Source: Lophium mytilinum (lineage: Eukaryota). From it: a stretch of 64,000 nucleotides of DNA. A program made the translations under genes and the position numbers. The stretch is from positions 506,801 through 570,800 of the forward strand of contig MU004184.1 in the NCBI GenBank assembly GCA_010093605.1. The letters run 5' to 3'. Below, in pieces: positions 20,891-43,666 of the stretch; the first letter of the stretch is position 1, and each line of letters begins with the position of its first letter. Below the pieces are notes generated by a model. It did no database searches. It worked only from the letters and a program-made list of their open reading frames with translations, and had not been told where the DNA came from.

Positions 20891-22774
20891 CTAGCAGTTT
20901 TGCCCAGGATACGGGCACCACTTCTTGCTCTTCGTCTCCGTGGGCTCCGGCTTTTGGGAGGGCACGTGGCACTTCTGGCCGGGGTACGGACACCATGGCG
21001 CCTTCGTGCTCGTAGGCTCCATGGTCGGGGTAGGTTGTGGGGCGTCGCTTTGCTTCGTGCTCCAAGTGATTATATTTGAGGGCTTTGCGGACGAAGAAGC
21101 GGGGGTTGGGGTAGGCTTCTTCGAACTTGGTGCATGGCTTGAAACTGACATCGAACTCGGCGTATGGCTGGCAGCCGACTTCGAGCTCGGCGCATGGCTT
21201 GAAGCTAACTTGGCGCTGGAGGTTGGCTTTAAACTAGCACTATGTGCGGAATTCTGCGTTGAGACGTCAGCAATGCAGGCTTCTGAGGCGGGAGGGGAGG
21301 CGAGTGCGTACCTAGTCACAACAGGGATGCTGGGACTCGGGTTCTCGTCCACTACCAGCCCTTCCCGCACGCGTTCCGCATTCTTGTGGTTGGCAGAGGG
21401 GGTGATGATGGGTTCAGCGGAGTAGTGAAGCCCAGTGAAAGCACCAACGGCCGGTGAGGGCTCGGCCCTCCGTTCTCCGACAATGTGGGTGAGAGTCCTA
21501 GGCGGGACGTACTTGGATGAAGAAGGGGGTGGTGGTGGTGGCGGTGGCGGCGGGGTAGATTTGGGTGGAGGGGGTGGAGGGGGTGTCGACGACGTAGTAG
21601 GGCCCAAGCTGAAGGTATACGAAACCTTCGCCGGCGCGGTGGGTGGGTGCTCCACATGACCTGAGGGAGTTGACAAGTACGTTACGACAGATCCTGGCGA
21701 GGTGGCGATTGGTAGTCCGCACTCGAAGATCGTAGACGGCGGCTTGGTCGACACGATGGTCACTGGCTGCAGGTTTATCGTGGGGACAATTTGGGGTCCG
21801 TTCGTGAAGAGTTTCGAGAGCAGTGGATTAACAGCGTCTGATTTGTCTGCCCTGCGGAAGTCGCGAGGATGGTGAGCCGTAACAGACGCCGCTGGGATGT
21901 TTATCTTCGATTTCAGTTCCGCAAGGGCACTGCCTGTGACTGGGATAACGACGATGGCTGTGCTGTGAGAGCTAGAGCTACTGTGGGCCGGCGTTGGTTT
22001 TGGGCTCGTTGGCTGTTTGCTACTGGAGGCCATCGACGCGGCAGGGTTGGTATTCGAGGGGTAGAGGATGGTGAAGAAATCACTAGACTGCGTGCTGACC
22101 GGCGGCTTAACTGGGGCAGATGACGGGGGTAGCATAGCACTTCCAAGGCTTGAGCCATGGGATAGAGTCAACCTCGAGTACGCCAGTGGATTGTTGGCTG
22201 CAGGCTTGCTGGAGGCTGAATTGCTGGTTGCAGGCTTGCTAGCCGCTGGAGTGCCGGTCGCAGGCTTGCTAGCCGTGGAGTTGCTGGCCATCGGGATGCT
22301 TGGGGCTAGTGTCGCCTTCGACGCTTTACAGTAGCTTCGATTCGAAGACTGGGTGCTCGGCTTCCACGTATACTTGGGGAAGGGTAGCGACGACGGGGTG
22401 ACAATGGAAGAGGCTGAATAATGAATGCCGGAGAATCCGACACGGGATGCCGACACAACAATTGTTGGTGAGTCGACGATGCTCTTGCTGTTGGAGTTCA
22501 CAGATTGAACAGATTGGATGGTAGCCGGGGGAGGCACCTGGAGCTGGCCGTTTGATATTTGAGTCACAGGAAGGAGACCTGCTGAGAGAGCACTCTGCGA
22601 GGCGGTGACGGTTTCAAAGACAGTGTAAAACGATGTCTTCGTTGGCGTCGCGACTGGGACTGTTACTACCTGAGTAACGGTCACAACGGTTTCGCCGGCT
22701 TGTCGGGGCAAAACAGCTGCAGAATTGGCCAACTGAGTGGCCAAGAGGATGAGGGAAATAACGACTAGAAACAT
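20891..22774 (-). CDS. Secreted Ser/Thr/Pro-rich cell-wall-like protein with a PIR-like motif and two C-terminal WCPYPGQxC repeats
   Basis: 627-aa ORF; hydrophobic signal peptide MFLVVISLILLATQLANS; VTQISNGQLQ; mucin-like composition; internal repeats. Confidence 0.85.
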   Translation of the reverse strand: MFLVVISLILLATQLANSAAVLPRQAGETVVTVTQVVTVPVATPTKTSFYTVFETVTASQSALSAGLLPVTQISNGQLQVPPPATIQSVQSVNSNSKSIVDSPTIVVSASRVGFSGIHYSASSIVTPSSLPFPKYTWKPSTQSSNRSYCKASKATLAPSIPMASNSTASKPATGTPAASKPATSNSASSKPAANNPLAYSRLTLSHGSSLGSAMLPPSSAPVKPPVSTQSSDFFTILYPSNTNPAASMASSSKQPTSPKPTPAHSSSSSHSTAIVVIPVTGSALAELKSKINIPAASVTAHHPRDFRRADKSDAVNPLLSKLFTNGPQIVPTINLQPVTIVSTKPPSTIFECGLPIATSPGSVVTYLSTPSGHVEHPPTAPAKVSYTFSLGPTTSSTPPPPPPPKSTPPPPPPPPPPSSSKYVPPRTLTHIVGERRAEPSPAVGAFTGLHYSAEPIITPSANHKNAERVREGLVVDENPSPSIPVVTRYALASPPASEACIADVSTQNSAHSASLKPTSSAKLASSHAPSSKSAASHTPSSMSVSSHAPSSKKPTPTPASSSAKPSNIITWSTKQSDAPQPTPTMEPTSTKAPWCPYPGQKCHVPSQKPEPTETKSKKWCPYPGQNC

Positions 22775-23729
22775 TTTGATGCGTTGCTGAAATGATTAAC
22801 GAGTGTTGGGGAGTATATCAGATATAGGTCAACTATTACGGACTTGAGTAGGATCAGGAAGAACGACAAGAGGAATGGAGCTTTTTGATGATATACGTCT
22901 AGTCATGAACAACAATAGGAAGCAGGCCTTTGTCCTCCAGAATACAATCGGCTCATGATTCAATGACATTATGCCCCGCATCGGCCTTCACTGTGAGATG
23001 GTATTCCTTTCAGCCCCAAACGCCTACAAAGAAGACAAAGAGCTGAAGCAATGCCATGTACATCAGCCGAAGCTATATTTGCAACAGCTGGTCGAATCGG
23101 AATCCTCAAAAGCATCGGGGGTAGGGAAACGCCGCCAGCACCTTTAGAAACCGGACTCCTACCACATTTGCGGGTAGTATAATGAGTGCTATGAATGAAG
23201 AGCTCAGATGCCAAGGATGCAGCTGCCTCACGCTTCTAGTTCAGATCGCCGCCTTGAATGGCAGCCAGCGGACTGCATGAGGAGCCAATGCCGAACAAGA
23301 GAAGCACAGCTCACCTAAAAGAACTCGACCATGGCTCGCCATTGTGCTTCACAAGCACTCAATAATACTTGCAGATAGCGGGTGGCGAAGCTTCGATAGT
23401 CGTGATGAAAGCAGAGTCAACACGCTGGAATGCCGCTAAGGCGCCATCGTAGGCGTCAGTGACACTTCACTTTGGAAACCATGGTCAGATTTGGCCCTGG
23501 CGTGTATGGATCATTCTTATGGTAGAGTTGATCGAGCTGGGAGGTTTTGGGGTGGCACACTAGGCTGGTGAAGGTCGTAGATAGCGTCTCGGGTCGTGGC
23601 AGGCAAGATACAGAATCTAATGCAGGAAACACAAAGCCAAAAGGGACAGCCGTGATGAATGAAGCTGGCGACCGCCTCCCAAATCGATGACAAGCACACA
23701 TTGGTGGTGTTGAGGTGGGTCGCCGTCGG

Positions 23730-31078: not shown

Positions 31079-34000
31079 GTCTTGATTTCTCCATCTTAGT
31101 TGGTTACGGGTCCTAGTGTTTTGAATTGTTGGAAAGAGCTCTTTTTTTATTCATCTGACTGTATACAACATTCATCGCGGCATGAAGCGAATCGTTATGA
31201 CTTAGCGACTTTCCTAGAGCAGGCAGAATTCAGCTTTGCCAGCTGTACAAAACACATCCTATTTAGGCGTTGCTCTGATCCTTCGTGGAGTGGAGGCATG
31301 AATAAGATTGAAATCGGCCTGGGTACTATTCCTACGACTTGGTTGGTTACTGAAAATAAGTAGAAACTCAGCTCTTACTAGTTACAGCTACACACCGACA
31401 TTTTAAGGCGTCTTCACGGCCCTCTGTGGTGTTGATAGTGCTTATCTAGCTGAGGTGTGGAGTACCCAACACGAGTCTAGCGCGGAGGAATGGTCAGCCT
31501 TCAGGAATCCATTTTCCCCAGGCTGCTGCGAATTTCTTTCTTCTTTCCTGCTTCTCGAAACGGCCCCCTGATCGCAGCGTCAGCCTCCTACGTTGATCCT
31601 CCACACCCAGAAGGTGCGAAGTCGCGAGGCCGACGACCTGGCGATCGCGATTTGCGAGTTCGTCGGACTTCGCTCTCGTGCCTGAGGCGACGTCGCAGCA
31701 CACCACCTTTTCTCATCCAAAGGACTCCGGCAGCAACCAAGTGCCAGAGCGCGGGCTAGGCATCTTCGCCATCGCCACTTGCTTCTGCGATGATGAGGGC
31801 GATTCCGATCTCGGCGGCAACGTGTCTTTGCCGCCAGCGATGACTGTGACTCGGGAGTTTCACGCCCAGCGCTTGCTGGCGGGTGGTACCCATCCCACAC
31901 AGGCTCCAGCCTCGCATTCGACAAAGCTCTGCCAGTCACGCCGCTGTCAGCGCCATCGCGAGGCCGACGGCACCCGTGGTCAACTGGTCATGCTTCACTC
32001 ATGTGCCCCATTCCTTTGTGGTTGACTGTCAACAAACCGTGTGGCGCATGAAACTCCAAGCAGGCAGAAGCGTCGCAGGTGCCTAGACCCAAATTAGCGG
32101 TAGGGTAGCGCTATCCCGGTGCCCGTGGGAGAGTTGACTCAGCGCGCCACCAATGCCGCCCTTTGACCCTTTCATCCTTTGTGAGATTATTCCCCAGGGG
32201 TCGGCCGAGCTCGTGATCGAGCTGGAGGATGAGAACGAACGCTGGGCTGGGCACAAAAAGGAGGTATCTCGGGTGGTCGGCGCCGATGGTGATGAGTCTG
32301 CGGGAAATCTCTGCAGTGGACTGCTGGACTGCGGTCTGGCTTCAGACTGCATGGCCGTTCTGCCGTTGTCTCACGGGCACCGGCAAAAGTCGGATGGGGG
32401 TTCCAGTTGTCTCCAGACTGCTGTGCCACTTCCAAGGTTTGCTGCTGCGTGTCATGGCCCACTTATTTGAAGACCGGCCCGGCAGCGTCCGCTGGATGAC
32501 CATCGAGCTTTTGAAGTGGCGTCTCCAGACTGCCACTGCATTCGGCTCTCGTTTAATCTGCCGTGTTGATCTTGTTCTCGGTGTCTTCAGACCAGCAGAT
32601 CGTGAGTGTCGGCAGGCCTGTTGCAGCGGCAGAAGTACGAGGACCACTGCGCTGATTTGAAGCTTGCAGCACCCTCCGCGTCGCACCGTCGCACGCTCCA
32701 CGGAGCACTCAAGGAGGTGTGTCGCGTCCCCAGCGATTGCGGGCAGCTGGGTGAGTCAAATGGCAGCTAATAGTGCCCGAGGTGGCAAGGCTGATATGCC
32801 AAGGCGGGCAATAGGCACGCTCTGGGCGCAAGCGTTCTCCATTGTTCGTGAATGCATCCACACCAGCCCGGGGAGCGGCGCGAGGAGCGAATGAAGCTTG
32901 AGCACGCATCTGATGAGGGGAAGAGGACGCCATGGTGGCCAGCGGGGGCGCGATAGGCTGCACTACGACGGGCGGTGGACGCTGCGCAGAGGCACGCAAG
33001 CAGAGTGGAGCTGATACCCAGCAAGCCATGGCAGCAATCGTCCAGCTGTTCCCTTTGACTGACGCAACTGCAAACCTCGCAGCCCTGAGGCGCTGAAGCA
33101 CGGCGGCGGGAACGACGACGAACTGTCCTCTGCGCTGCGCTCGGCCCGGTGCCTGGCCGTCAGTGAACAGCCACCTTGCGTGCGATCAACCCATCACTCA
33201 GCCTCGTTAAGCAGGCGGCGGTGTTGCTGCGACGATGGCCTCGAGAGCGCCAGGCTGCCCCAAGACGCACGGGTGCTGCGTTTGATGGCAGTGTCGCCAG
33301 CCCTGATATCGCGGCCGCCGCAAACAGTGCCCCAAACCGCACTGTGGAAGCAAATAATAGACAGCAGCGGAAATTCGGCAGCAATTATTCATAGCAAATG
33401 AGAAGCGCGTGGGAGGCCCAATAGGGCGTTCTCCATTAGAATGGCAGTGAGTGGCCAAATTCTCGGGGGGCAAGGAGGGTGTGGGCGCGGACCACCAGGC
33501 GCTGAGCCCGTCGACTCATCCGCGCTGGGCTGTCTATCATCAAAACCGCCTCTCGCCCCCCTCCCAAGCCCGAACCCATCGCCAAAAATGACCCCCTCAA
33601 TACCCAACATCGATCCCTCGGGGACGCAGTAGCTGCAGCCTGCGCACGAACAGCTCCATCACCGTCACCGTCGCCCGCTCTACTCTCAACTCAGTCTTCT
33701 GTTCCGTCCTACGACCTTTGTCCTCTTCTTCTTCTTCAGCCAGCAGCTTTGTCTCGGGACTTTGCCGCCTCGACCCTGCTGCCGCCTACCCCAAGACTCA
33801 TCAGCACACAGTCATTCACTGCGCCGGCCCTTTAATTCCAGCACTGGCCCCGTGCATTCTGCTACAGACCCCCCTCCCGACTCCCTTCGACAGCCTTGCC
33901 GTGCTGCTGTAGCTCTTGCCTCGTTTACTCGATCGCGACCGCCGCACCAGAACGCCATCACCGCCGAGCCCCAACGTCAACCCCAACCGTCACCCCAACA

Positions 34001-34163
34001 CCTCGAATCTTCACTCCATCACCCCGTGGCCCTGCCTCAATAATATCTCGCTGCCTATTTCGCCGCGCCGTGTGACTCGTCAGCCGACCGTGAAGCTGCT
34101 CTTTCTGGTGACCTCCCTCGTCATCAACTGAACACTTCTCCCTCGACCAACCAGCTCCACACC

Positions 34164-34262
34164 ATGCACCCCACGTCTCCAACTACTCCAGTCTCTCGTC
34201 GCTCAGATATCACACTCTCAACCGGAAACAAGGCCACCATCATTGGAGGCTCCCGCTATTAG
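34164..34262 (+). promoter_or_regulatory. Upstream ORF (32 aa) in the putative long 5' leader of the cyclin gene
   Basis: CACACCATGC context; MHPTSPTTPVSRRSDITLSTGNKATIIGGSRY*; the only plus-strand ATG I found between 33591 and 34902. Confidence 0.6.
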
Positions 34263-34902
34263 ACACCCGCGACCTTCGAATTCCGGCTTTTACGGCGACA
34301 CTGTCGTCCTAGGAGCTCTCTCGAAGCGATTGCGGTCCGGTCTTGCATACACAGGTCTTGTTTTTGTGATTCTGAGGCGGACTAGTGACTGGAGTCACTA
34401 TCGGCAAGCGAACGGACCGAACTGAGCAGTTATTGTTCAGCAACCTCTCCAATCGTGCGCCTGCTGCCACCACCTCTCCTACTACACCACCCGCGCATCA
34501 TCTGCTCTCCTCCCGAGTTCCTGCATCCTCTGGTCTTTTTGCCATTCGCTCGACTCCGCACGGCATTTGCTGTCCGGACTCCGTTTGAAAGGCTCATTAG
34601 CACGTTTGGCCGCTGGAACGAGCTTCCTAAGGAAGAAAGCAGAAGGAAAAATCGCGACTGCATCAGCTGTCGAAATCAGCCCACGCGTGGCTTGTAGGGC
34701 GTCATCCCGAACGGTTCGTCTATCGGTTAATCTCAGGTCACCCCACGACCACTCGATCACGTTTCTCTACCTTACGACTCGTCCCCAGCCTTACCAGGTT
34801 GACACGATAGGGTAATCCAAACAAAAGCTCTATCTCCCCTCAGTCCTTTATCCACTTTCATATCACGGGTTTCTTTTGCCTACTCTTCCACCTTTCATCA
34901 AC

Positions 34903-37037
34903 ATGGGCCTCGACCAACAATCAAGTCTTGGCACTTCGCCTCCTCGGAGCCACCCATATGCCTCATCGCTCTCTTCATCGGCATCCTCTTCTATGTCCTC
35001 CGTCTTCTCGGTCGATGCCGCCTCTTCGCAAACAACCACGTCGTCAGTCTCCAGCTCGCAGATTGGCTGGGAATCGGAAGAGGGTTGGAGCTCATCGCGG
35101 CCCGTCGCTGCACCAATCAACGACGTCAATGGTGTGAACAGCTTCGCACCAATCAGCCGTGTCAGCACGTTCCCGCAGTATCAGCCGCAAGCATGCCACG
35201 ACTCCGCTGCCGAGCGCGTCCTTCCTCCTCTGAGGTCCGACTTGCCCGTCCCTGCGGAGCAACGCCAGCATCCCCGACGCTCATCAACAGCTTCTGCACG
35301 TCCACCGCCAGCTCTAGTTCGCCAGTGCGAGCGTAGGGTCAACTTCGTGGATGGTCTAGTCGGTAAGCAGTATTCCTGTTCGTGTGTATATTGATGCGTT
35401 TCATTCGCTAAGCCGTTTTCTTCTTTCAAGATTCTGCAACTCAGATGGTCGAGTGCATTTGGCCTCTCTCAGTTCCCTCCAGCCGCTGCGAGGCTGCTAG
35501 TGGCCGTGGTGTCTTGCCTCTCCGGACCTTCATCCAGGAGACCCTTCGCCGCTCCCGAACCAGCTATTCGACGCTCCAGGTCGCACTCTACTACCTGATC
35601 CTCATCAAGTCCCATGTTCCCAAACACGACTTCACCATGCAGCAACCGGAAGACACCCAATCATGCCGTGCGCTCCAGTGCGGTCGACGCATGTTCCTAG
35701 CTGCTCTCATCCTCGCGTCGAAGTATCTGCAAGACCGCAACTACTCTGCTCGCGCTTGGGCCAAGATCTCAGGCTTGAAGGTCTGCGAGATCAACACGAA
35801 CGAGATGGCTTTCCTCACCGCCGTCAACTGGAAGCTTCACATCACCGATCCCACCTGGGAGCGTTGGCAGAAGGTCGTCCTCGACAACACCCCTACCCAG
35901 CACCCCCCGCCTCCTGGTGCTGGAGCGCTTTCCGTCAGCTCGAACATGTCTTATTGGCGCGCCATAATTCCCAACCTGACTCCAGAGCTGGACGTTATCG
36001 AGCTTCCTTCCGAGGTACAAGTTCTTAAGCCCAAGCACCAGCAAGAGTTCCACGTCCGCCCTGCTCTGCGAACCCCCACCTGGACAGAAGGCTGCTCATC
36101 CCAGGAGACTACGCCCACTCCGTCGCACTACAAGCTTCCGCGGTTCTTGGAGCCCAAGCCCGACATGCTGCCTCCTACGCCGACTCTGCCTCGCATGGGC
36201 CCCTTGCCAACACCGAACTTGACTCCTCAATCGATTGCCTCTTCCACTCCTGCTGCGAGTGCCATGGCTTTCGGATCGAGGCGTCCATCCATGTGTGCAG
36301 CAATGGCTCAGGCTCAGAGCGCCTCACTAGCTCGCACTTGCATGGATCAATGGTCTGTGAGGACTGGCTTGGAGGCTTACCAGTTTAGTGGCCGCCGACC
36401 GTCGCTTGCCCCCTCAAATGCTTCTTCCTCATCGTCTCCCGAGTCTATGGTCATGGACACTTCCCGCTCTTCCCGCGCATCGTCGATCTCGTCCGTCTCA
36501 TCCGCAGGCTGGGCGCCGGTCCAGGCCAAATTGGCCCGACTGGCGACTTGCCGATCAGCGAGACTGCCGTACCCGGCCATGCAGAAGCTGGAGGTTACCG
36601 AGTATCCTATGGAGCCCATGTCCTCGCCCAATCTAGACAGCTTCCACATCGACGATGTTGAGATCAAGCAGTTCGACAGCCCATTGTCCATGCGTAGCAC
36701 TCACGAGAAGAAGTTGAACGGCCGGAAGCGTGGCCGATCGTCTGTAGACTTACAGAAGAACGTCCGCCATCTACTGAACATTTCCCACTCGGTGTCCAAC
36801 CTCCGCGGCTCCAACATGGTGCTGCCCGACCGCTCCGCCGCCACGTCGTTTCTTCTCCCAGACCCAACCAGCAACAGGACCCCCCCTCTGGGCTCCCAGT
36901 CGCCGATGTCCATGTCGCCGGAACGCCGCCTGCCAATAGAGAAGAATTTCGGCCATAAGCGTGCGTGCGCGACGGAGGCTGTGCCAACCTTCCAGCGTGG
37001 TCCGGGTGGCCCAGGAATGTGGAAGGACGTGTTGTAG
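34903..37037 (+). CDS. Pho85-type cyclin, PCL5/Clg1-like; intron 35363-35430
   Basis: NFVDGLV|DSATQMVECIWP, LRTFIQETLRRSRTSYSTLQVALYYL, CGRRMFLAALILASKYLQDRNYSARAWAKISGL cyclin box; long Ser/Pro-rich tail. Confidence 0.9.
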
Positions 37038-37474
37038 CACCATTAACAACTACATACACTACCACCAGACCCCCTACAAAATACCCCTTACCGTGTACAT
37101 TGACCAACACAAGCCACAATTACCTCCTTTTCTTTCTTTTTCTTTTTCTTTTAACTACGTGGAGGGGGCCTCTGCGTCTTAATCCGGCGTTCTTGGGAAA
37201 CCCTGCGGAGGGCGGGCGAGGGGAACCGGTACCCCGAGCCTGCCCTTCCGCAGGGTTGGGAACGGGCCGGAAATGGCAGTTTTGTAGGTTTATTGCGAGG
37301 GAGAGGGGGAGCTGGTGGGTGGCAGATAGTGAATCAATTAGGGTCGAAGACCTTGTTATATGTACGCGTTGTTGTGACTAGGTGACCTTGTTGTATGTTC
37401 GTGTTGTTGTGACTACTTGATGTGATGTGGTGTGGTGAGGGAGAAGGGGTTAGATACAATACTGCTTAGACTCT

Positions 37475-40400
37475 CGTCTTGCACACGTGATGCCGCTGTG
37501 AGGAGGGCCCTGGGTGGTAGATGGGTGGGTGGGTAACAGGTAGGCCGATTTTTGTGGTGTTAAGGTTGATATTGACGTGGGGTGCTAATTCTAGGTGGAG
37601 TTCCTAGTGAATGGGTATTGCGCTGCGATAACTTCATCTTTGCGTGTCTAATAGCACTGTGAGGAGGGCCTTGGGTAGTAGGTGCTTGTGCTGTTAAAAC
37701 GTATGCTAACTTCCGTGGTGTTGACTTTGACATCACGTTTTCAGGGCCGCAATTCAGCGGATGGATATCACAGTACTAGGGCTTTCCTTTTGCACTCTTG
37801 ATGCCAACGTGAGGAGGGCTTTGCCTAGCAGACAGGTAGTCGGCCAAAAGGTATCTTAATTGCCGCGGTATTGACTTTAACATCCCGCTTTTAGGGCTGC
37901 ATTTTGGTTGAATGGATATAACAACGCTAGGGCTTCCTTTCTGCTTGGTAGATGCCACTGTCAGGAGCGCCTTACCTAATAGATGCTTGTGTAGGCAAAA
38001 GGTAGGCTAGCTTCCGTGGTGTTGATTCAAATATTAGTCTAATAGAATATCTTAGAGGCTGGGTTTAGATGAATAGATATAGGGCTACCTAAGCTTCCAT
38101 TCTGCACGCCAGGTAACACTATTAGGAGGACCCTGCGTAGCAACTAGCTAGTCGGGCAAACGGTAGGCTAATTTACAATATACTAGCGTTGAAATCGACG
38201 TAATATATATTTTTCAAGTGCTGGATCTAGGTTATTAGATATGGCAATACCTAGACTTCTATTTTGCGCTCTAAACGCCGCCGTAAGGAGTACCCTGCAT
38301 AGTACCTAGCTAACCGGCTAAAAGGCAGCATAATATACACGGTACGAAACTTTTAACTCTACTTCCTAGTATGTAAAATAGTGCTGGAGATCCTAAAGAC
38401 CTCTCCTCATGCTGCAATAAATTTTCTACAGCGGTAAGATTTTGAAGCTGCGTTATAGAGTGCGGCGTAGCCTGAATAAGTAACTTTGTCAAGTGAATTG
38501 CTAGTAAACTAGCATCCTAAAAGGTCTCCCGGGTTAATCTAAAATCCTGCGCAGTGATGTAAAAGACGTAACGCGGCGAACGAAACTGGTATTATTCCTC
38601 TCTTGAAACACTACAAAGACTAGGATTTTGGATCAGAGACATAGCTACAACGCCGCGAAGGCTATAATCTTGCTTGCGTGATGTCGCTGTTAGGAGGGCG
38701 CTATGGAGCAAGTCGCTGGATAGTGCAAAGGAAGTCTGATTTTAATCGTGGGAATTTTACATCGGATCTAAGGGCTAAAGAGCCCGTAAAATGCAGTTTG
38801 CATAGCTTAGACTTCTCTCTTGTTCGTGCAATAGCACTGTACGAAGGGTCTTGCGAAGTAAGCCGCAAGTTGGTGAAAAGGTCGCCTAATACACGCTGTA
38901 TTGACATGGACATTGAGCTAGGGGCTAGAAAGCCCGTAAGTTCGCGATTACGCTGCTTAGACTTTCATCTGGCTCGTCCGATGACGTTGTTAGGAGGGCC
39001 CTAGCTAGTAAGTGGGCTGTCAGCTAAAGTATAGTCCAATTCCTAAGGCGTTGATGTTAGCATCGTAACCGGGGGTCTAGACCGCTGATCAGGTCGAGAT
39101 TACACTGCCTGGAATTCTTTCTTGCGTGCTTGTTACTACTGTGAGGAGAGCCTTGGCTAGGAGGTATGATGTTAGCCAAAAGTCAATTTGAACTTCGCTG
39201 TGTTGACTTTGACATCGTCTCCGGGGGTTTGGAAATCCTGCGAGTGTGAAATTGTACTATGTGGATCGCTTTCTTGCGTGCGTGATACTACCGTAGGGAG
39301 GGCTCCAGCTAACAGGTCGTTATTTAAGCAAAAGGTAGTCTAACCTTCACCGTATTGACCTCCACATCGTCCCCGGGGTGTGAAAATTACGTATATTCAA
39401 GATTACACGACTGCGGCATTTCTCTTGCGTTTTGCATAGCACTGTAAAGGGTCCCCTAGCTAGCAGGTGGTACCGATTTTCCTGATTGATAGTGACGTTT
39501 GAGAATGTCGTCTTTTCAATCTGCGTTCGTTTCAAGCGTGCAGCCCCCTCCCCTGAGCCAGAATTGGGTCCTCAGGCGAAGAGGCCTCGGATCATCCAGG
39601 AAGCCTTCCATCCCTCCTCCTTCAGGTGGGTAAACGGGAATCTAAACTCCGCTGCGTTGACCTTAACATCGTGTCTAGAATCTTGACAAATCGGCGGTGG
39701 TAAGTGAATACACTTAGGCTTCTTTTTTGCTCGTTCAACGACGCCGTAAAGAGTACCCTGGATAGCAAACAGCATGCTAGTCAATGTACATTCTGATTCC
39801 GGTTGCATTGGCTTTGGCATCGAGGTCCCGGGTTGAAAAGCATAAGGGCCACAGCACCTCGATGTACCGTTCCGTTTTTGATCACCCGACGCCACTGTAA
39901 CGGGTTCCTTGACTATTAGGTGGTCGTCTAGGTAAGAGGTAGTCTGATATGCGCTGTGTTGACCTTAGCATCATGTCTCAAGTCTTAGGAACTAGGCAGT
40001 GACGAATGGTTATACTTAGGCTCCTTATTTGCGCGTTTGATTACACCGTCTGAAGGATCTTGGCTAGCAGATAGCGAGCAAGTTAAATGGCACTCTGATT
40101 TCCGCCGCATTGAATTTAACATCGAGATTGGAGGTTGAATGTCCGAGGAGCCCTAGTACATGGATATACCGTTCCATTTTTGATCGGTCAACACCACCGT
40201 GAGGCGGACCATACCTAGCATGTGGCTTCTCGATCGAAAGGCGAGTTGATATCCGCTGCGCCAACATTGACAATGTGTTTGAGTTGTTAAAAATCCCGTG
40301 GAGTAACCCAAGCAGTGTCATGTTTTAGGCATACAATTATAGCAAGATGCTGCACGCGTATAGCACCACTCCAGCTTCAATTTTGCTCGCTCGACAGCGC

Positions 40401-41525
40401 TGTCAGGAGTGGTCCAATTAGCAAGCGGCTCCTCGGTCAAAGGTTAGCTTGATCTCCGCTGTACCAACTTTGACATCGTGGTAGAGTTGTTGAGAATCCC
40501 GTGGAGATACTCTACGCAGTGATAGGCATGGGTACGGACATTTGTAGCAAGACACAGTACGAATACACCACGACTTGGCTCCTTCCTTGCACATTCGTCA
40601 CTACAGTAAGGAGTGCCCTGACTAGCAGGTGTTAGTTTAGATTAAAGGCAGTATAATCGTCGCTGTCTTAACTTTAACATCGTATTCGAGATTTGAAAAG
40701 CTTGTGGAGGTACTCCGAGCAGTAACATGCCTATATACCGAGATGTGCGCAAGACACTTCACGTGAATAGTACGACTCGGGCTCCGTCTTTACTCGCTCG
40801 ACACGACCGTAAGGAGTATCCTGGCAAGTCTGTACCGGGCTGATCAAGAACTAGTGTAAGAAGTAGCCTAGCTAGCACAAAGCCCATCGGTCAAAAGATA
40901 GCCTGACTTCCACTGTGTAAGCGTTAAGATCGTGTTTAGACGTCTTCGAGGCTAAAGGGGTACTAAATTGCCCGTGTATACCACCGCAAGGAGTTCCTTA
41001 GCTAGCACGTAGCTAGTCCGTTAAAAGAACGCTCATTTCTTAGTGGGTCAGCATTGATGTTGATTTCTCCGCTCCCGCGCACTTGACACCGCTGTAAGGA
41101 AGGCATCAGCTAGCAAGTATCCTATCGGTCAAAAGGAAACTTAGTTCCCGCTACACTGACCTCGACATCGTAGTCTTTCCTTTTGCTCGCTCAGTGCCAC
41201 TATGAGGAGTAGTCTAGCTAGCTTGTTGCCAGCCATCCAGGAGCTAGAGTAATTCCCGCTGCAGTGACCTTTAGATCGTCTTCTTTGCTTTTGCACGCTT
41301 AATAGCGCCATGTGAGGTGTCCCGCGAAGCAGGTAGATGGCCGGCCAAAAGGCTGTCTAACTCCTACTGCATTAGTAATGACCTTGAATCCTCCGCTCCC
41401 ACACACGTTACACCACTGTCAGGAAGGCCTCAACCAGGAAGTATCCCATCGGTCCAAAAGGTATCTTGATTCCTACTGTAATGACCATGATATCCTACTC
41501 GGGGTATCGAAAAGCCCTAGCACGC
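37475..41525. repeat. Degenerate non-coding tandem array, about 25 units
   Basis: Recurrent core of roughly cttgcg...cactgt(g/a)aggagggcc(c/t)t.gctagcaggt...ggtcaaaaggtag.ct.a.ttccgctgtgttgac(t/c)tt(g/a)acatcgt. Anchors near 37496, 37657, 37807, 37957, 38118, 38280, 38687, 38836, 38986, 39138, 39290, 39440, 39743, 39893, 40045, 40196, 40399, 40602, 40807, 40982, 41091, 41198, 41309, 41414. Confidence 0.9.
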
Positions 41526-41537
41526 CTCGCCTCTACC

Positions 41538-43666
41538 TCAACTCATCAGCAGCCGGCACACGCTGCCCACATTCAACCCCCTCAAATCAGCATAATGCTG
41601 CCCAACCCCCAAGAACACCACCGGAATACCAGTAGCATGCACCATACTCACCAGCGTGCCCACCATATCCCCAACGGTATCGCACTTGCTAATCACAAAC
41701 CCATCCAAGCCCCTGCCCGCGCCGAACGAGTTATTGAAATTCCGTGCTTGCGCTACCGCATCCGACCCTACGAGCGCCTCGCCAACCATGAGAATCTTAT
41801 CTGGCTTCGCTAGCTTCGCGAACTTCTCCAGGGAAGACATGAGGCGCGCATCGTTGTGACGCCGGCCGGCGGTGTCGATAAGCACGACGTCGTACTTGTT
41901 TTCTTTCGCGAATGTGACGGCGTCTGCGGCGATATTTGCGGCGTCTTTGCCGTAGCCCTTCTCGAAGATGTCAACTTCGCCGCCCTCACGCTTTGAAAGC
42001 TCTTTGAGATTCCGAACGTGGACGCGGAGTTGTTCGACGGCGCCGGAGCGGAAGGTGTCGGCGGCGGCGATGAGTACGCGGTGGTGGTTTTGGAGGAGGA
42101 AGAAGGCGATCTTGGAGAGGTTGGTGGATTTGCCCACGCCATTGACGCCGACGATGGATAAGACATAGGGGCGGTTGGTGGATGTAACGGTGGAGATTTC
42201 GCGGAGGAGGTCGAGGGAGGAGGTTGGGGTGAGGATTTTGGTTAGGGCGCGCTCCATGGCGGTGCGGAGGGTGGACTCGATTGCTGGAAGGGAATTTGGT
42301 CAGTTTAAGGATCTTAGAGAAGGGGAAAAAGAGATGGAAAAGAACATACTTGTGAAGCTGTTCGTCTTGAGACCGATCAAGTCCCGCTCGACACTATCAC
42401 ACAGCCGCACTGCTGCTTCCCGCGCGACGTTCTTCTTGAGTAGATGGTCCTCCATACCTTTCAATGGCTTCTCCAGGTCCTCTTTCGTGAGTGTCTTTCC
42501 ACCCACAACATTCCTAAAGAGCCCTCCGATAGCACCAAGACTCGATCCTACGATCCCGCCTGCTGCGGTGGAACTCTCCTTCTTCGCGTTCGCAGACGCT
42601 ATTATCTCATCCATCTCCTCGTCCAAATCCTTCAGCACGAACTGCCCCTTGCCGGTTGTCCGACCCCAAGATTCAGGATTAATGGCGTCTGGCAATTCGA
42701 AATCGGCGGGGTCGTTTGCTGAGACAGTCGAGTAATCCAGATTTATAGATTTATCCTCTTCGTCTGCGCCAAATTCGTTCCACACACGGTTCTTCTTCTG
42801 TTTCCCAGCAGCTTTGCCTTTGCGCGCTGATGTCTCGTCCCCGGAGGACGCGGGCGCCGAGTTCTCGGCAGCCTTCACTTTGCGATCGCGCCGCGAGGGC
42901 TTGCTTCCCGGGCGTGTCTTTCCGGTGAGAATACGTGAAGCAGGAGTAGAGGGGCGGGAGGTATCAGGTGTAGGGACGGGAGTGGCATCGGTCGAAGTAT
43001 CGGGATTGTATATGGGCTTCTGAGGAGCTGTAGCTTTTATTAACATTTGTCACCATACTTCACGGGGAAAAACTATACCTTTCCGCAATCCAGGCATCGG
43101 CGGTGGTTCATCAGCTCCGTGATCTGTCCCCGAACTCGACGGAGGCGTAAACTCAGTATTGGATGTGACTTCGAAGGCAGAGCTTGTGGATGTATCGTTC
43201 GAGGCTTCCACTCTCTGCATTTCTCGATCGAAGTATGGGTCGAATGGAAACTTGGCATTGCTTGTCTCCCCCTTCAGCTGCTCCCCATATAGCCCTGTGA
43301 ATAGTGCCGACACATTATCTATGAGCTTGTCTATCCAAGTCAAGTGGACCAGTGATTGGTATACAGCCTGCCTTCAAGTTAGCAATTATTCACAACCAAG
43401 AACGACAGTCCTGAGGCATCGTATCTCTGTCCCTCACTCACCACGAATATAAGCCCAAAGTCCTTTGCCAAATTCCATTTCATAATATACCCATCCTTGC
43501 GGTACGTTGGCTTCGTGGTACCGTCGCCGTACGCGACTTTGTTGGTGCGCTCTTCGATGAGCACCTCGCGGATGAGGCTGTTGATGACATAGCTGTGGAC
43601 AGGGACGTAGGTCCGTGACCAGAGCACGACGCCCGAGGTCGACAGGATCTCGAAGGTGTCGAGCAT
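41538..43666 (-). CDS. SRP101: Signal recognition particle receptor subunit alpha (3 introns)
   Basis: Longin N-terminus MLDTFEILSTSGVVLWSR..INSLIREVLIEER..GLIFV|AVYQSLVHLTWIDKL; SRP GTPase motifs GVNGVGKSTNLSK, DTFRSGAVEQL, DTAGR, SKCDT, GVGQHYADL. Confidence 0.95.

Follow-up and report, generated by a model that had tools for sequence, protein, structure and literature searches.

Between two convergent genes of the fungus Lophium mytilinum, a cyclin gene on the plus strand and SRP101 on the minus strand, lies an array of strongly diverged tandem units. The window analysed here is the whole stretch of 64,000 nucleotides that holds this array (contig MU004184.1, G000:C4:506801-570800), fungal, gene-dense DNA from an assembly of 43.4 Mb, and unprefixed coordinates are those of the window. 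An earlier note on this DNA had described about 25 diverged units between convergent genes; that observation is confirmed, and its interpretation is partly supported. The array is very probably the decayed tandem expansion of the interior of a ~227-bp non-autonomous MITE (miniature inverted-repeat transposable element), probably of Tc1/mariner type, and most likely has no function. The locus comprises the following features.

35412..37037, plus strand: cyclin reading frame (Pfam PF08613), upstream of the array and on the same strand, with its stop at 37037; a spliced contig ends at 37297.
37451..41512, plus strand: the whole tandem array, very probably MITE-derived, of about 25 units, with outer end-repeats unrecognisable (profile matches and a walk along a model of the MITE).
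37451..38352, plus strand: first six units, with periods of 161, 150, 151, 161 and 162 bp, starting at MITE position ~30.
38353..38618, no strand: 266-nt stretch not from the MITE, the cause of a 406-bp gap (MITE-model walk).
38619..40170, plus strand: 150-152-bp units, with a junction near that of end-bounded MITEs with two cores.
39471..39622, no strand: 152-nt foreign insert within one unit.
40171..40759, plus strand: three 203-204-bp units, with a decayed right end-repeat at 40532-40559.
40760..40963, plus strand: a unit cut short, followed by a partial duplication of 47 nt (MITE positions 28-121, then 75-183).
40959..41512, plus strand: five 107-108-bp units, the last continuing to MITE position 169.
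40773..41537, minus strand: portion of the array that lies within the spliced SRP101 contig, as 3' untranslated region (3'UTR; run X3, depth 460).
41538..42299, minus strand: final coding segment of SRP101, with an SRP54-type GTPase domain and the stop at 41538-41540.

A profile search of the whole window returned 26 matches, all on the plus strand, between 37470 and 41496, two of them the halves of one interrupted unit, hence the count of about 25. Their start-to-start spacings are 161, 150, 151, 161, 162, 406, 150, 150, 152, 152, 151 (six times), 203, 204, 203, 47, 131, 107, 108, 108 and 108 bp, falling into period classes of 150-162, 203-204 and 107-108 bp with modal values of 151 and 107. 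These spacings agree with the stepwise periods first reported (about 150-161, 203 and 108 bp), to which they add the 406-bp gap and the 47/131 irregularity. A shared core is likewise present, at ~105 nt rather than the ~95 bp claimed, and 19 window cores have a pairwise identity of 56% (range 43-70%). The spacers of neighbouring units are more similar than those of distant pairs (0.46 vs 0.36), as the earlier proposal of serial local duplication would have it, and neighbouring cores are hardly more similar than distant ones (0.57 vs 0.55). Two foreign stretches (38353-38618 and 39471-39622) and the 47-nt partial duplication, none of them noted earlier, interrupt the series. The second stretch has CAGGTGG at each border and matches the length of one period almost exactly, which preserves the 151 register; it is single copy, and its source was not found elsewhere in the genome. 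Tandem Repeats Finder, a check that had been suggested, does not report the array in its output for the window. The MITE-model walk assigned 3341 nt of 37200-41700 to the element, compared with 144 nt in the reversed stretch, and a chance origin of the array is excluded.

Searched against the genome, another suggested check, the core proved to be widespread: a DNA search located it on five other contigs, and a 27-place core box pattern gave 264 exact matches against 10 in the control. Fifty-five loci chosen by core matches contain 383 units, with none in the reversed sequence, and single copies account for 38 of the 90 runs in those loci; all 129 match-chosen loci examined contain 611 units, and scaling from the box count gives a rough genome total of 1400-1500. 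The arrays are situated between genes and reach 4-8 kb at most. One array of 57 units on contig C6 (L015 1-5320 with L020; G000:C6:162032-170217) passes from periods of 107-108 bp to 150-151 and then 229-236 bp; it lies downstream of a gene with Thr/Ala-rich repeats of its own, and blocks of it recur on contig C16. The first ~390 nt of the window array with its flank (37401-37792) are 76% identical to a five-unit array with flank on contig C10, so that blocks have also moved between loci. A two-copy 35-bp repeat (37349-37418) stands immediately before the array, in a flank of which a part also occurs at the C10 array. Since the arrays are so short, the window cores only 56% identical to one another and 75% of the core tree length on terminal branches, the family is not a classical satellite with long homogenised arrays and concerted evolution.

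The origin of the units is indicated by the single-copy cores, whose flanks are a common left end and an inverted copy of it at the right: the core occurs once inside a TA-flanked element of ~227-230 bp with inverted ends of ~28 bp. The end pattern had 210 genome-wide matches at ≤3 mismatches and none in the control. Forty loci, retrieved around the strongest end matches for pairing of ends, all carry the core and yielded 45 inverted end pairs, namely 24 of 229-234 nt, seven of 216-218 nt (both lengths include both TA), five of 382-385 nt, and others that span neighbouring elements or are unique. The 24 elements of 229-234 nt are 83% identical to their own consensus, of which the left end is TACAGTACTAGGCCATAAGTCTGGGCAC and the right end, reversed, is TACAGTGACAGGCCACAAGTCTGGGCAC; the two match at 24 of the first 28 letters. 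The element is thus shorter than 500 bp, uniform in length, non-coding, bounded by terminal inverted repeats and dispersed in high copy number, as expected of a MITE (the short, uniform-length, non-coding definition is given in the accessible part of PMC5579170). The 216-218-nt variant has a shorter left part (loci L117-L119, L121, L102, L105 and L116), and at L029 (438-507) two MITE copies stand back to back with overlapping left ends.

The window units can be placed on this element. The 150-152-bp units span MITE positions ~25-45 to 172-181, the 203-204-bp units positions 28-231, that is, the element minus its left end-repeat, and the 107-108-bp units positions 45/49 to 152/156. The outer end-repeats are unrecognisable in 37200-41700, where the best match has 11 of 28 mismatches, and the array has lost both outer MITE ends. 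The five end-bounded elements of 382-385 nt contain two cores: four jump from MITE position 172-175 back to 24-27, a junction of the same kind as that of the window's 151-bp units, which end at 172-181, and the fifth repeats positions 1-152. These two-core copies look like an intermediate between the single MITE and the array, and single, double and long forms of the family coexist in the genome. No known element had been recognised when the array was first described, and a match to the internal repeat of a transposon had been named there as a refuting case; the units, as the interior of a MITE, are that case. The accompanying suggestion of an old satellite grown from a 3'UTR segment holds as regards age, and the 3'UTR origin is wrong since the unit is an internal part of a dispersed MITE.

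Candidate relatives with transposases were sought by Pfam searches, which recovered Tc1-type relics (14 DDE_3 and seven HTH_Tnp_Tc3_2 matches) and pogo-type relics (10 DDE_1 matches), most of them carrying many TAG/TAA stops. Seven Tc1-type relic loci (about five distinct places) have TA-CAGT/TA-TAGT ends that differ from the MITE end at 8-10 of 28 positions; in shuffled loci such ends occurred in 1/140 cases at ≤9 mismatches and in 12/140 at ≤10. One relic of 1360 nt has both ends, and the Tc1-type relics have a 34-residue spacing before the catalytic Glu, as counted by eye. Duplication of a TA target site is a criterion of the Tc1/mariner superfamily. Judging from the sequences, the MITE appears to work like a Tc1-type element, with relic ends that are related to its own and not identical. 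Three weak matches of the MITE model (E~0.003) in transposase loci were considered as leads to a parent and rejected, two of them being one place within a transposase frame and taken as chance, the third a probable MITE fragment. Among the other relics, a 1295-nt Tc1-type copy (L071 723-2017 and L124 1101-2395; G000:C2) has 52-nt perfect inverted ends of different sequence, and at L130 (G000:C23:244271-244780) a DDE_1 match lies in a stop-free 426-aa frame with inverted repeats separated by 3149 nt; this may be an intact pogo-type element in the midst of relics that resemble products of repeat-induced point mutation (RIP).

These results suggest a history in which a MITE copy landed downstream of the cyclin gene and an internal segment of it was then duplicated; unequal exchange or repeated local duplication would have lengthened the array and altered its period, and the outer ends would have been lost. 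The DNA may since have drifted without function, with SRP101 transcripts coming to extend ~750 nt into it. Several observations weigh against this account. The window cores are just 57% identical to the young MITE consensus. TA flanks both sides of 18 of the 24 elements (chance 0.002), a result that is partly circular as the search pattern itself contained TA; no empty site was seen, and the target-site duplication is a putative one. The exact autonomous parent was not among the 29 transposase loci from three Pfam searches. In the young consensus, no 14-nt window with at least nine matches was found as direct microhomology at offsets 108, 129, 151, 162 or 204, which leaves the duplication step unexplained. 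A few strongly kept core columns, such as T11 and T30 (retained in 69 of the 71 cores taken from several loci), are not fully explained, and pure neutrality predicts neither the period ladder nor the orientation bias described below.

RIP had been proposed as the mode of decay, on the impression that CTAG and TpA were frequent. CTAG is indeed frequent (10.2/kb in the array vs 2.8/kb elsewhere in the window), in part since the element itself contains it. A RIP-mutated repeat has a high TpA/ApT ratio, a low (CpA+TpG)/(ApC+GpT) ratio and almost exclusively C-to-T changes. These product and substrate indices are 1.27 and 0.99 in the array, compared with 1.68 and 0.40 in a pogo-type relic, and the transition/transversion ratio over 71 cores from several loci is 1.35, values that do not fit RIP as the main cause, which was therefore rejected. 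With a mild CpA and CpG excess of C-to-T changes (0.36 and 0.40 vs 0.20-0.24), RIP is a minor contributor at most.

Transcription around the array was assessed from contigs of run X3, which are spliced, do not differ from the window and show neither true ends nor strand; that the run is RNA is a guess, none of the runs that contain this DNA being registered as RNA, but its SRP101 contig skips five introns. The SRP101 contig reaches 40773, so that the last ~750 bp of the array lie within the SRP101 3'UTR, in keeping with the earlier placement of the array's right end there; the last unit ends at ~41512, and the SRP101 TGA is at 41538-41540. These last units are passengers of the 3'UTR and not the source of the array. 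The cyclin contig (depth 1498) ends ~150 nt before the array, and bins across 37411-40217 have a depth of 0-2.5. Within a unit (37833-37893), one contig of depth 2 leaves out 59 nt with GT..AG ends, possibly a rare splicing event in read-through RNA. The flanking genes, and not the array, are covered in three related runs, which are uninformative since at least two of them consist of spliced contigs. Loose ends of X3 contigs at 40383-40416 and 40855 reveal further copies of the element within assembled transcripts from other places. The cyclin contig starts >2.3 kb before the 35361-35430 intron, reflecting a long leader or upstream frames, and 33000-37297 is ~97% identical in two related runs. 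Further away, a 634-aa minus-strand frame with 30-bp repeats (20891-22795) has no Pfam match.

The best-surviving alternative adds to the MITE origin and does not replace it: segments of whole helical turns (~10.75 bp) may have been favoured in the making or keeping of duplications, as expected if the new unit were supplied by small circles, transposase-bridged loops or paired same-face cuts. We regard such a rule as a tentative proposal, somewhat more likely to fail than to hold. The five periods present in at least six loci (107.9, 129.5, 150.9, 161.3 and 225.0 bp) fit 10, 12, 14, 15 and 21 steps of 10.75 bp with a root-mean-square deviation of 0.48 bp (p=0.0045), the ladder having been spotted in these data ahead of its test. 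Giving minor periods the same weight removes the significance, with p at 0.44-0.72 for four lower thresholds and at 0.96 when 21 merged period classes are used, and periods of 124, 133-138, 143, 147 and 156 bp fall off the ladder, as does the 216-218-nt MITE variant. In a further 34 loci, 53 of the 60 periods scored at locus level lay within 2.7 bp of the ladder, although of the 14 that do not belong to the common classes only 7 did; of periods of at least 165 bp, 19/24 were near it. In mixed arrays, cores are nearer to same-locus units of other periods than to same-period units elsewhere in 7/8 loci for period 129, 19/20 for 151 and 14/16 for 162, a grouping that is weaker for 108 (4/6) and 204 (1/4). 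Because cores group by locus and junction estimates vary within a period class, the same lengths seem to have arisen repeatedly; local conversion could mimic this by homogenising cores, and locus counts are not independent since blocks have moved between contigs. Length steps of ~10.5 bp are described in the available portions of reports on extrachromosomal circular DNA (eccDNA; bioRxiv 10.64898/2026.10.19.760212) and Spo11 double cuts (bioRxiv 10.1101/2019.12.18.881268), a value that 10.75 exceeds. That the ladder is real at all strikes us as possible, with the balance tilting slightly towards doubt. The near-nucleosomal period once thought suggestive calls for no such reading, given the further periods of 108, 129 and 204; the earlier emphasis on period lengths may nevertheless be of use, as the commonest ones fit the ladder.

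A second alternative concerns place: arrays might grow or persist where an upstream gene reads through them in one orientation, or where they separate genes as a buffer or a terminator. The gene calls came from a codon model that had been trained on nine frames of the window and ranked the true frame first in 9/9 held-out frames; sites at which no neighbour was called (three arrays, 15 small sites) were left out, and the validation set comprised 34 of 40 planned loci. Beside the left end of arrays of at least three units, a same-strand gene ends in 28/32 discovery and 14/17 validation cases (pooled 42/49), compared with 23/49 and 15/24 (pooled 38/73) for sites with one or two copies (pooled p=1e-4); at the right end of arrays the count is 22/43 (p=5e-4 against the left). 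The window array, with the cyclin gene upstream on its strand, fits this pattern, and both spliced contigs of the window stop at or within the array. However, the validation set alone is not significant against the small sites (p=0.30; p=0.013 against one half), the calls rest on nine frames from a single window and lack a neighbour at 18 sites, the cyclin contig stops short of the array, and no sequence constraint was found in the tests given below. We consider this explanation doubtful. Joined with the helical-turn rule, it leads to a broader conjecture that we think rather unlikely, namely that the Tc1-type MITE repeatedly seeds arrays by a step of whole turns (10, 12, 14, 15, 19 or 21 of ~10.75 bp), mainly where gene transcription enters it in one orientation; candidates for that step would be circles of 100-230 bp that close and re-enter, or paired same-face cuts of the helix. 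If the conjecture were true, the arrays would preserve, like fossils, a way of making tandem repeats that depends on geometry and transcription.

Very improbable is a third possibility, that a pre-existing protein-binding or chromatin repeat was captured and spread by the MITE, as proposed for miDNA4 of Xenopus by a route set out in section 6 of PMC12628747, a source available in part. Short well-kept patches at fixed spacing would agree with it, as would a weak 11-nt periodicity of the site rates (p=0.023, among eight periods that were tried) and the greater divergence of arrays than of solo copies (0.67 vs 0.73). Yet the units lack fixed boundaries of their own, their junctions vary and they take in parts of either end-repeat, which is expected of cuts in a MITE, and rate variation is mild: the tree of 80 cores has 24 substitutions per site, a gamma shape of 3.9 and seven indel starts. 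Selection against indels was rejected as an explanation of the near-absence of gaps, with solo copies almost equally gapless; indels per substitution number 17/1948 for solo copies, 17/2013 for runs of 3-5 units and 25/4308 for runs of at least six (p=0.36), or 0.0058 in long arrays vs 0.0087 in solos.

That the array consists of structured RNAs, of intron-exon cassettes or of a repeat protein in decay is so improbable as to be set aside: branch-point-like YTRAY motifs in the core, the depth-2 contig skipping 59 nt and one minus frame with the fewest stops favour it, against which RNAalifold predicted 0 pairs on 31 units (plus strand folded), Rfam had 0 matches on either strand at E≤5, ARAGORN found 0 tRNAs, entropy is equal over the three codon phases of the core (p=0.99), core site rates have no period-3 signal (p=0.49; 80 cores), the modal periods 151 and 107 are not multiples of 3 and a 130-aa frame inside the array has no Pfam match. 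The structured-RNA element suggested earlier thus finds no support in these searches, and the non-coding reading stands, with 20-60 stops per frame in the 19 window cores across six frames (20 in the minus frame just mentioned). Decayed-protein and exon-plus-intron units were rejected for want of codon phase, and splice-like letters are not fixed.

Expansion of a MITE interior, the origin we prefer for the window array, has precedents. In the parts of PMC12628747, PMC9659126 and PMC6947457 that are accessible, Xenopus Xstir is described in three forms, as a MITE, a composite and a bare array, and a model for miDNA4, a Tc1/mariner MITE, has internal arrays growing and ends being lost. Like Xstir/Xmix and miDNA4 as presented there, the Lophium family has single MITEs, MITEs with internal tandem copies and bare arrays side by side, the arrays deriving from internal MITE sequence with the ends lost. 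It differs from these cases in its fungal host, in forming many short, presumably euchromatic arrays of 55-70% identity rather than a homogenised satellite, in mixing several unit boundaries and periods within one array, and in its possible 10.75-bp ladder and gene-orientation bias; unlike in the miDNA4 model, no border microhomology was found in the young consensus. The mimp elements of Fusarium, whose parent impala is Tc1-like (PMC5579170, as far as its text was available), are similar in size (180-220 bp, here ~227), in their CAGT start and in the link to Tc1-type transposases, here present as relics. Compared by eye with the published mimp expression, however, the ends agree only in CAGT and a later AA, the accessible text mentions no tandem internal arrays for mimp, and a parent with identical ends was not found here. 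With eccDNA and Spo11 double cuts, as far as those partly available sources describe them, the family would share segment lengths that step by about one helical turn; those are transient molecules with 10.5-bp steps, whereas the units here are fixed in the germline and the 10.75-bp fit is partly supported. Literature searches, limited by poor coverage of subscription papers and no proof of absence, returned no fungal MITE-derived arrays and no ladder in repeat units. A strange intergenic array is thereby explained, with the confidence stated at the outset, as the offspring of one MITE family, and should the ladder and the orientation bias hold, the family would supply natural events by the hundred in which to study how a repeat first comes to be duplicated in tandem. 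MITE-derived arrays are already a known kind, and this family is a further case of them, set apart by its host, its low identity and its mixed unit boundaries.

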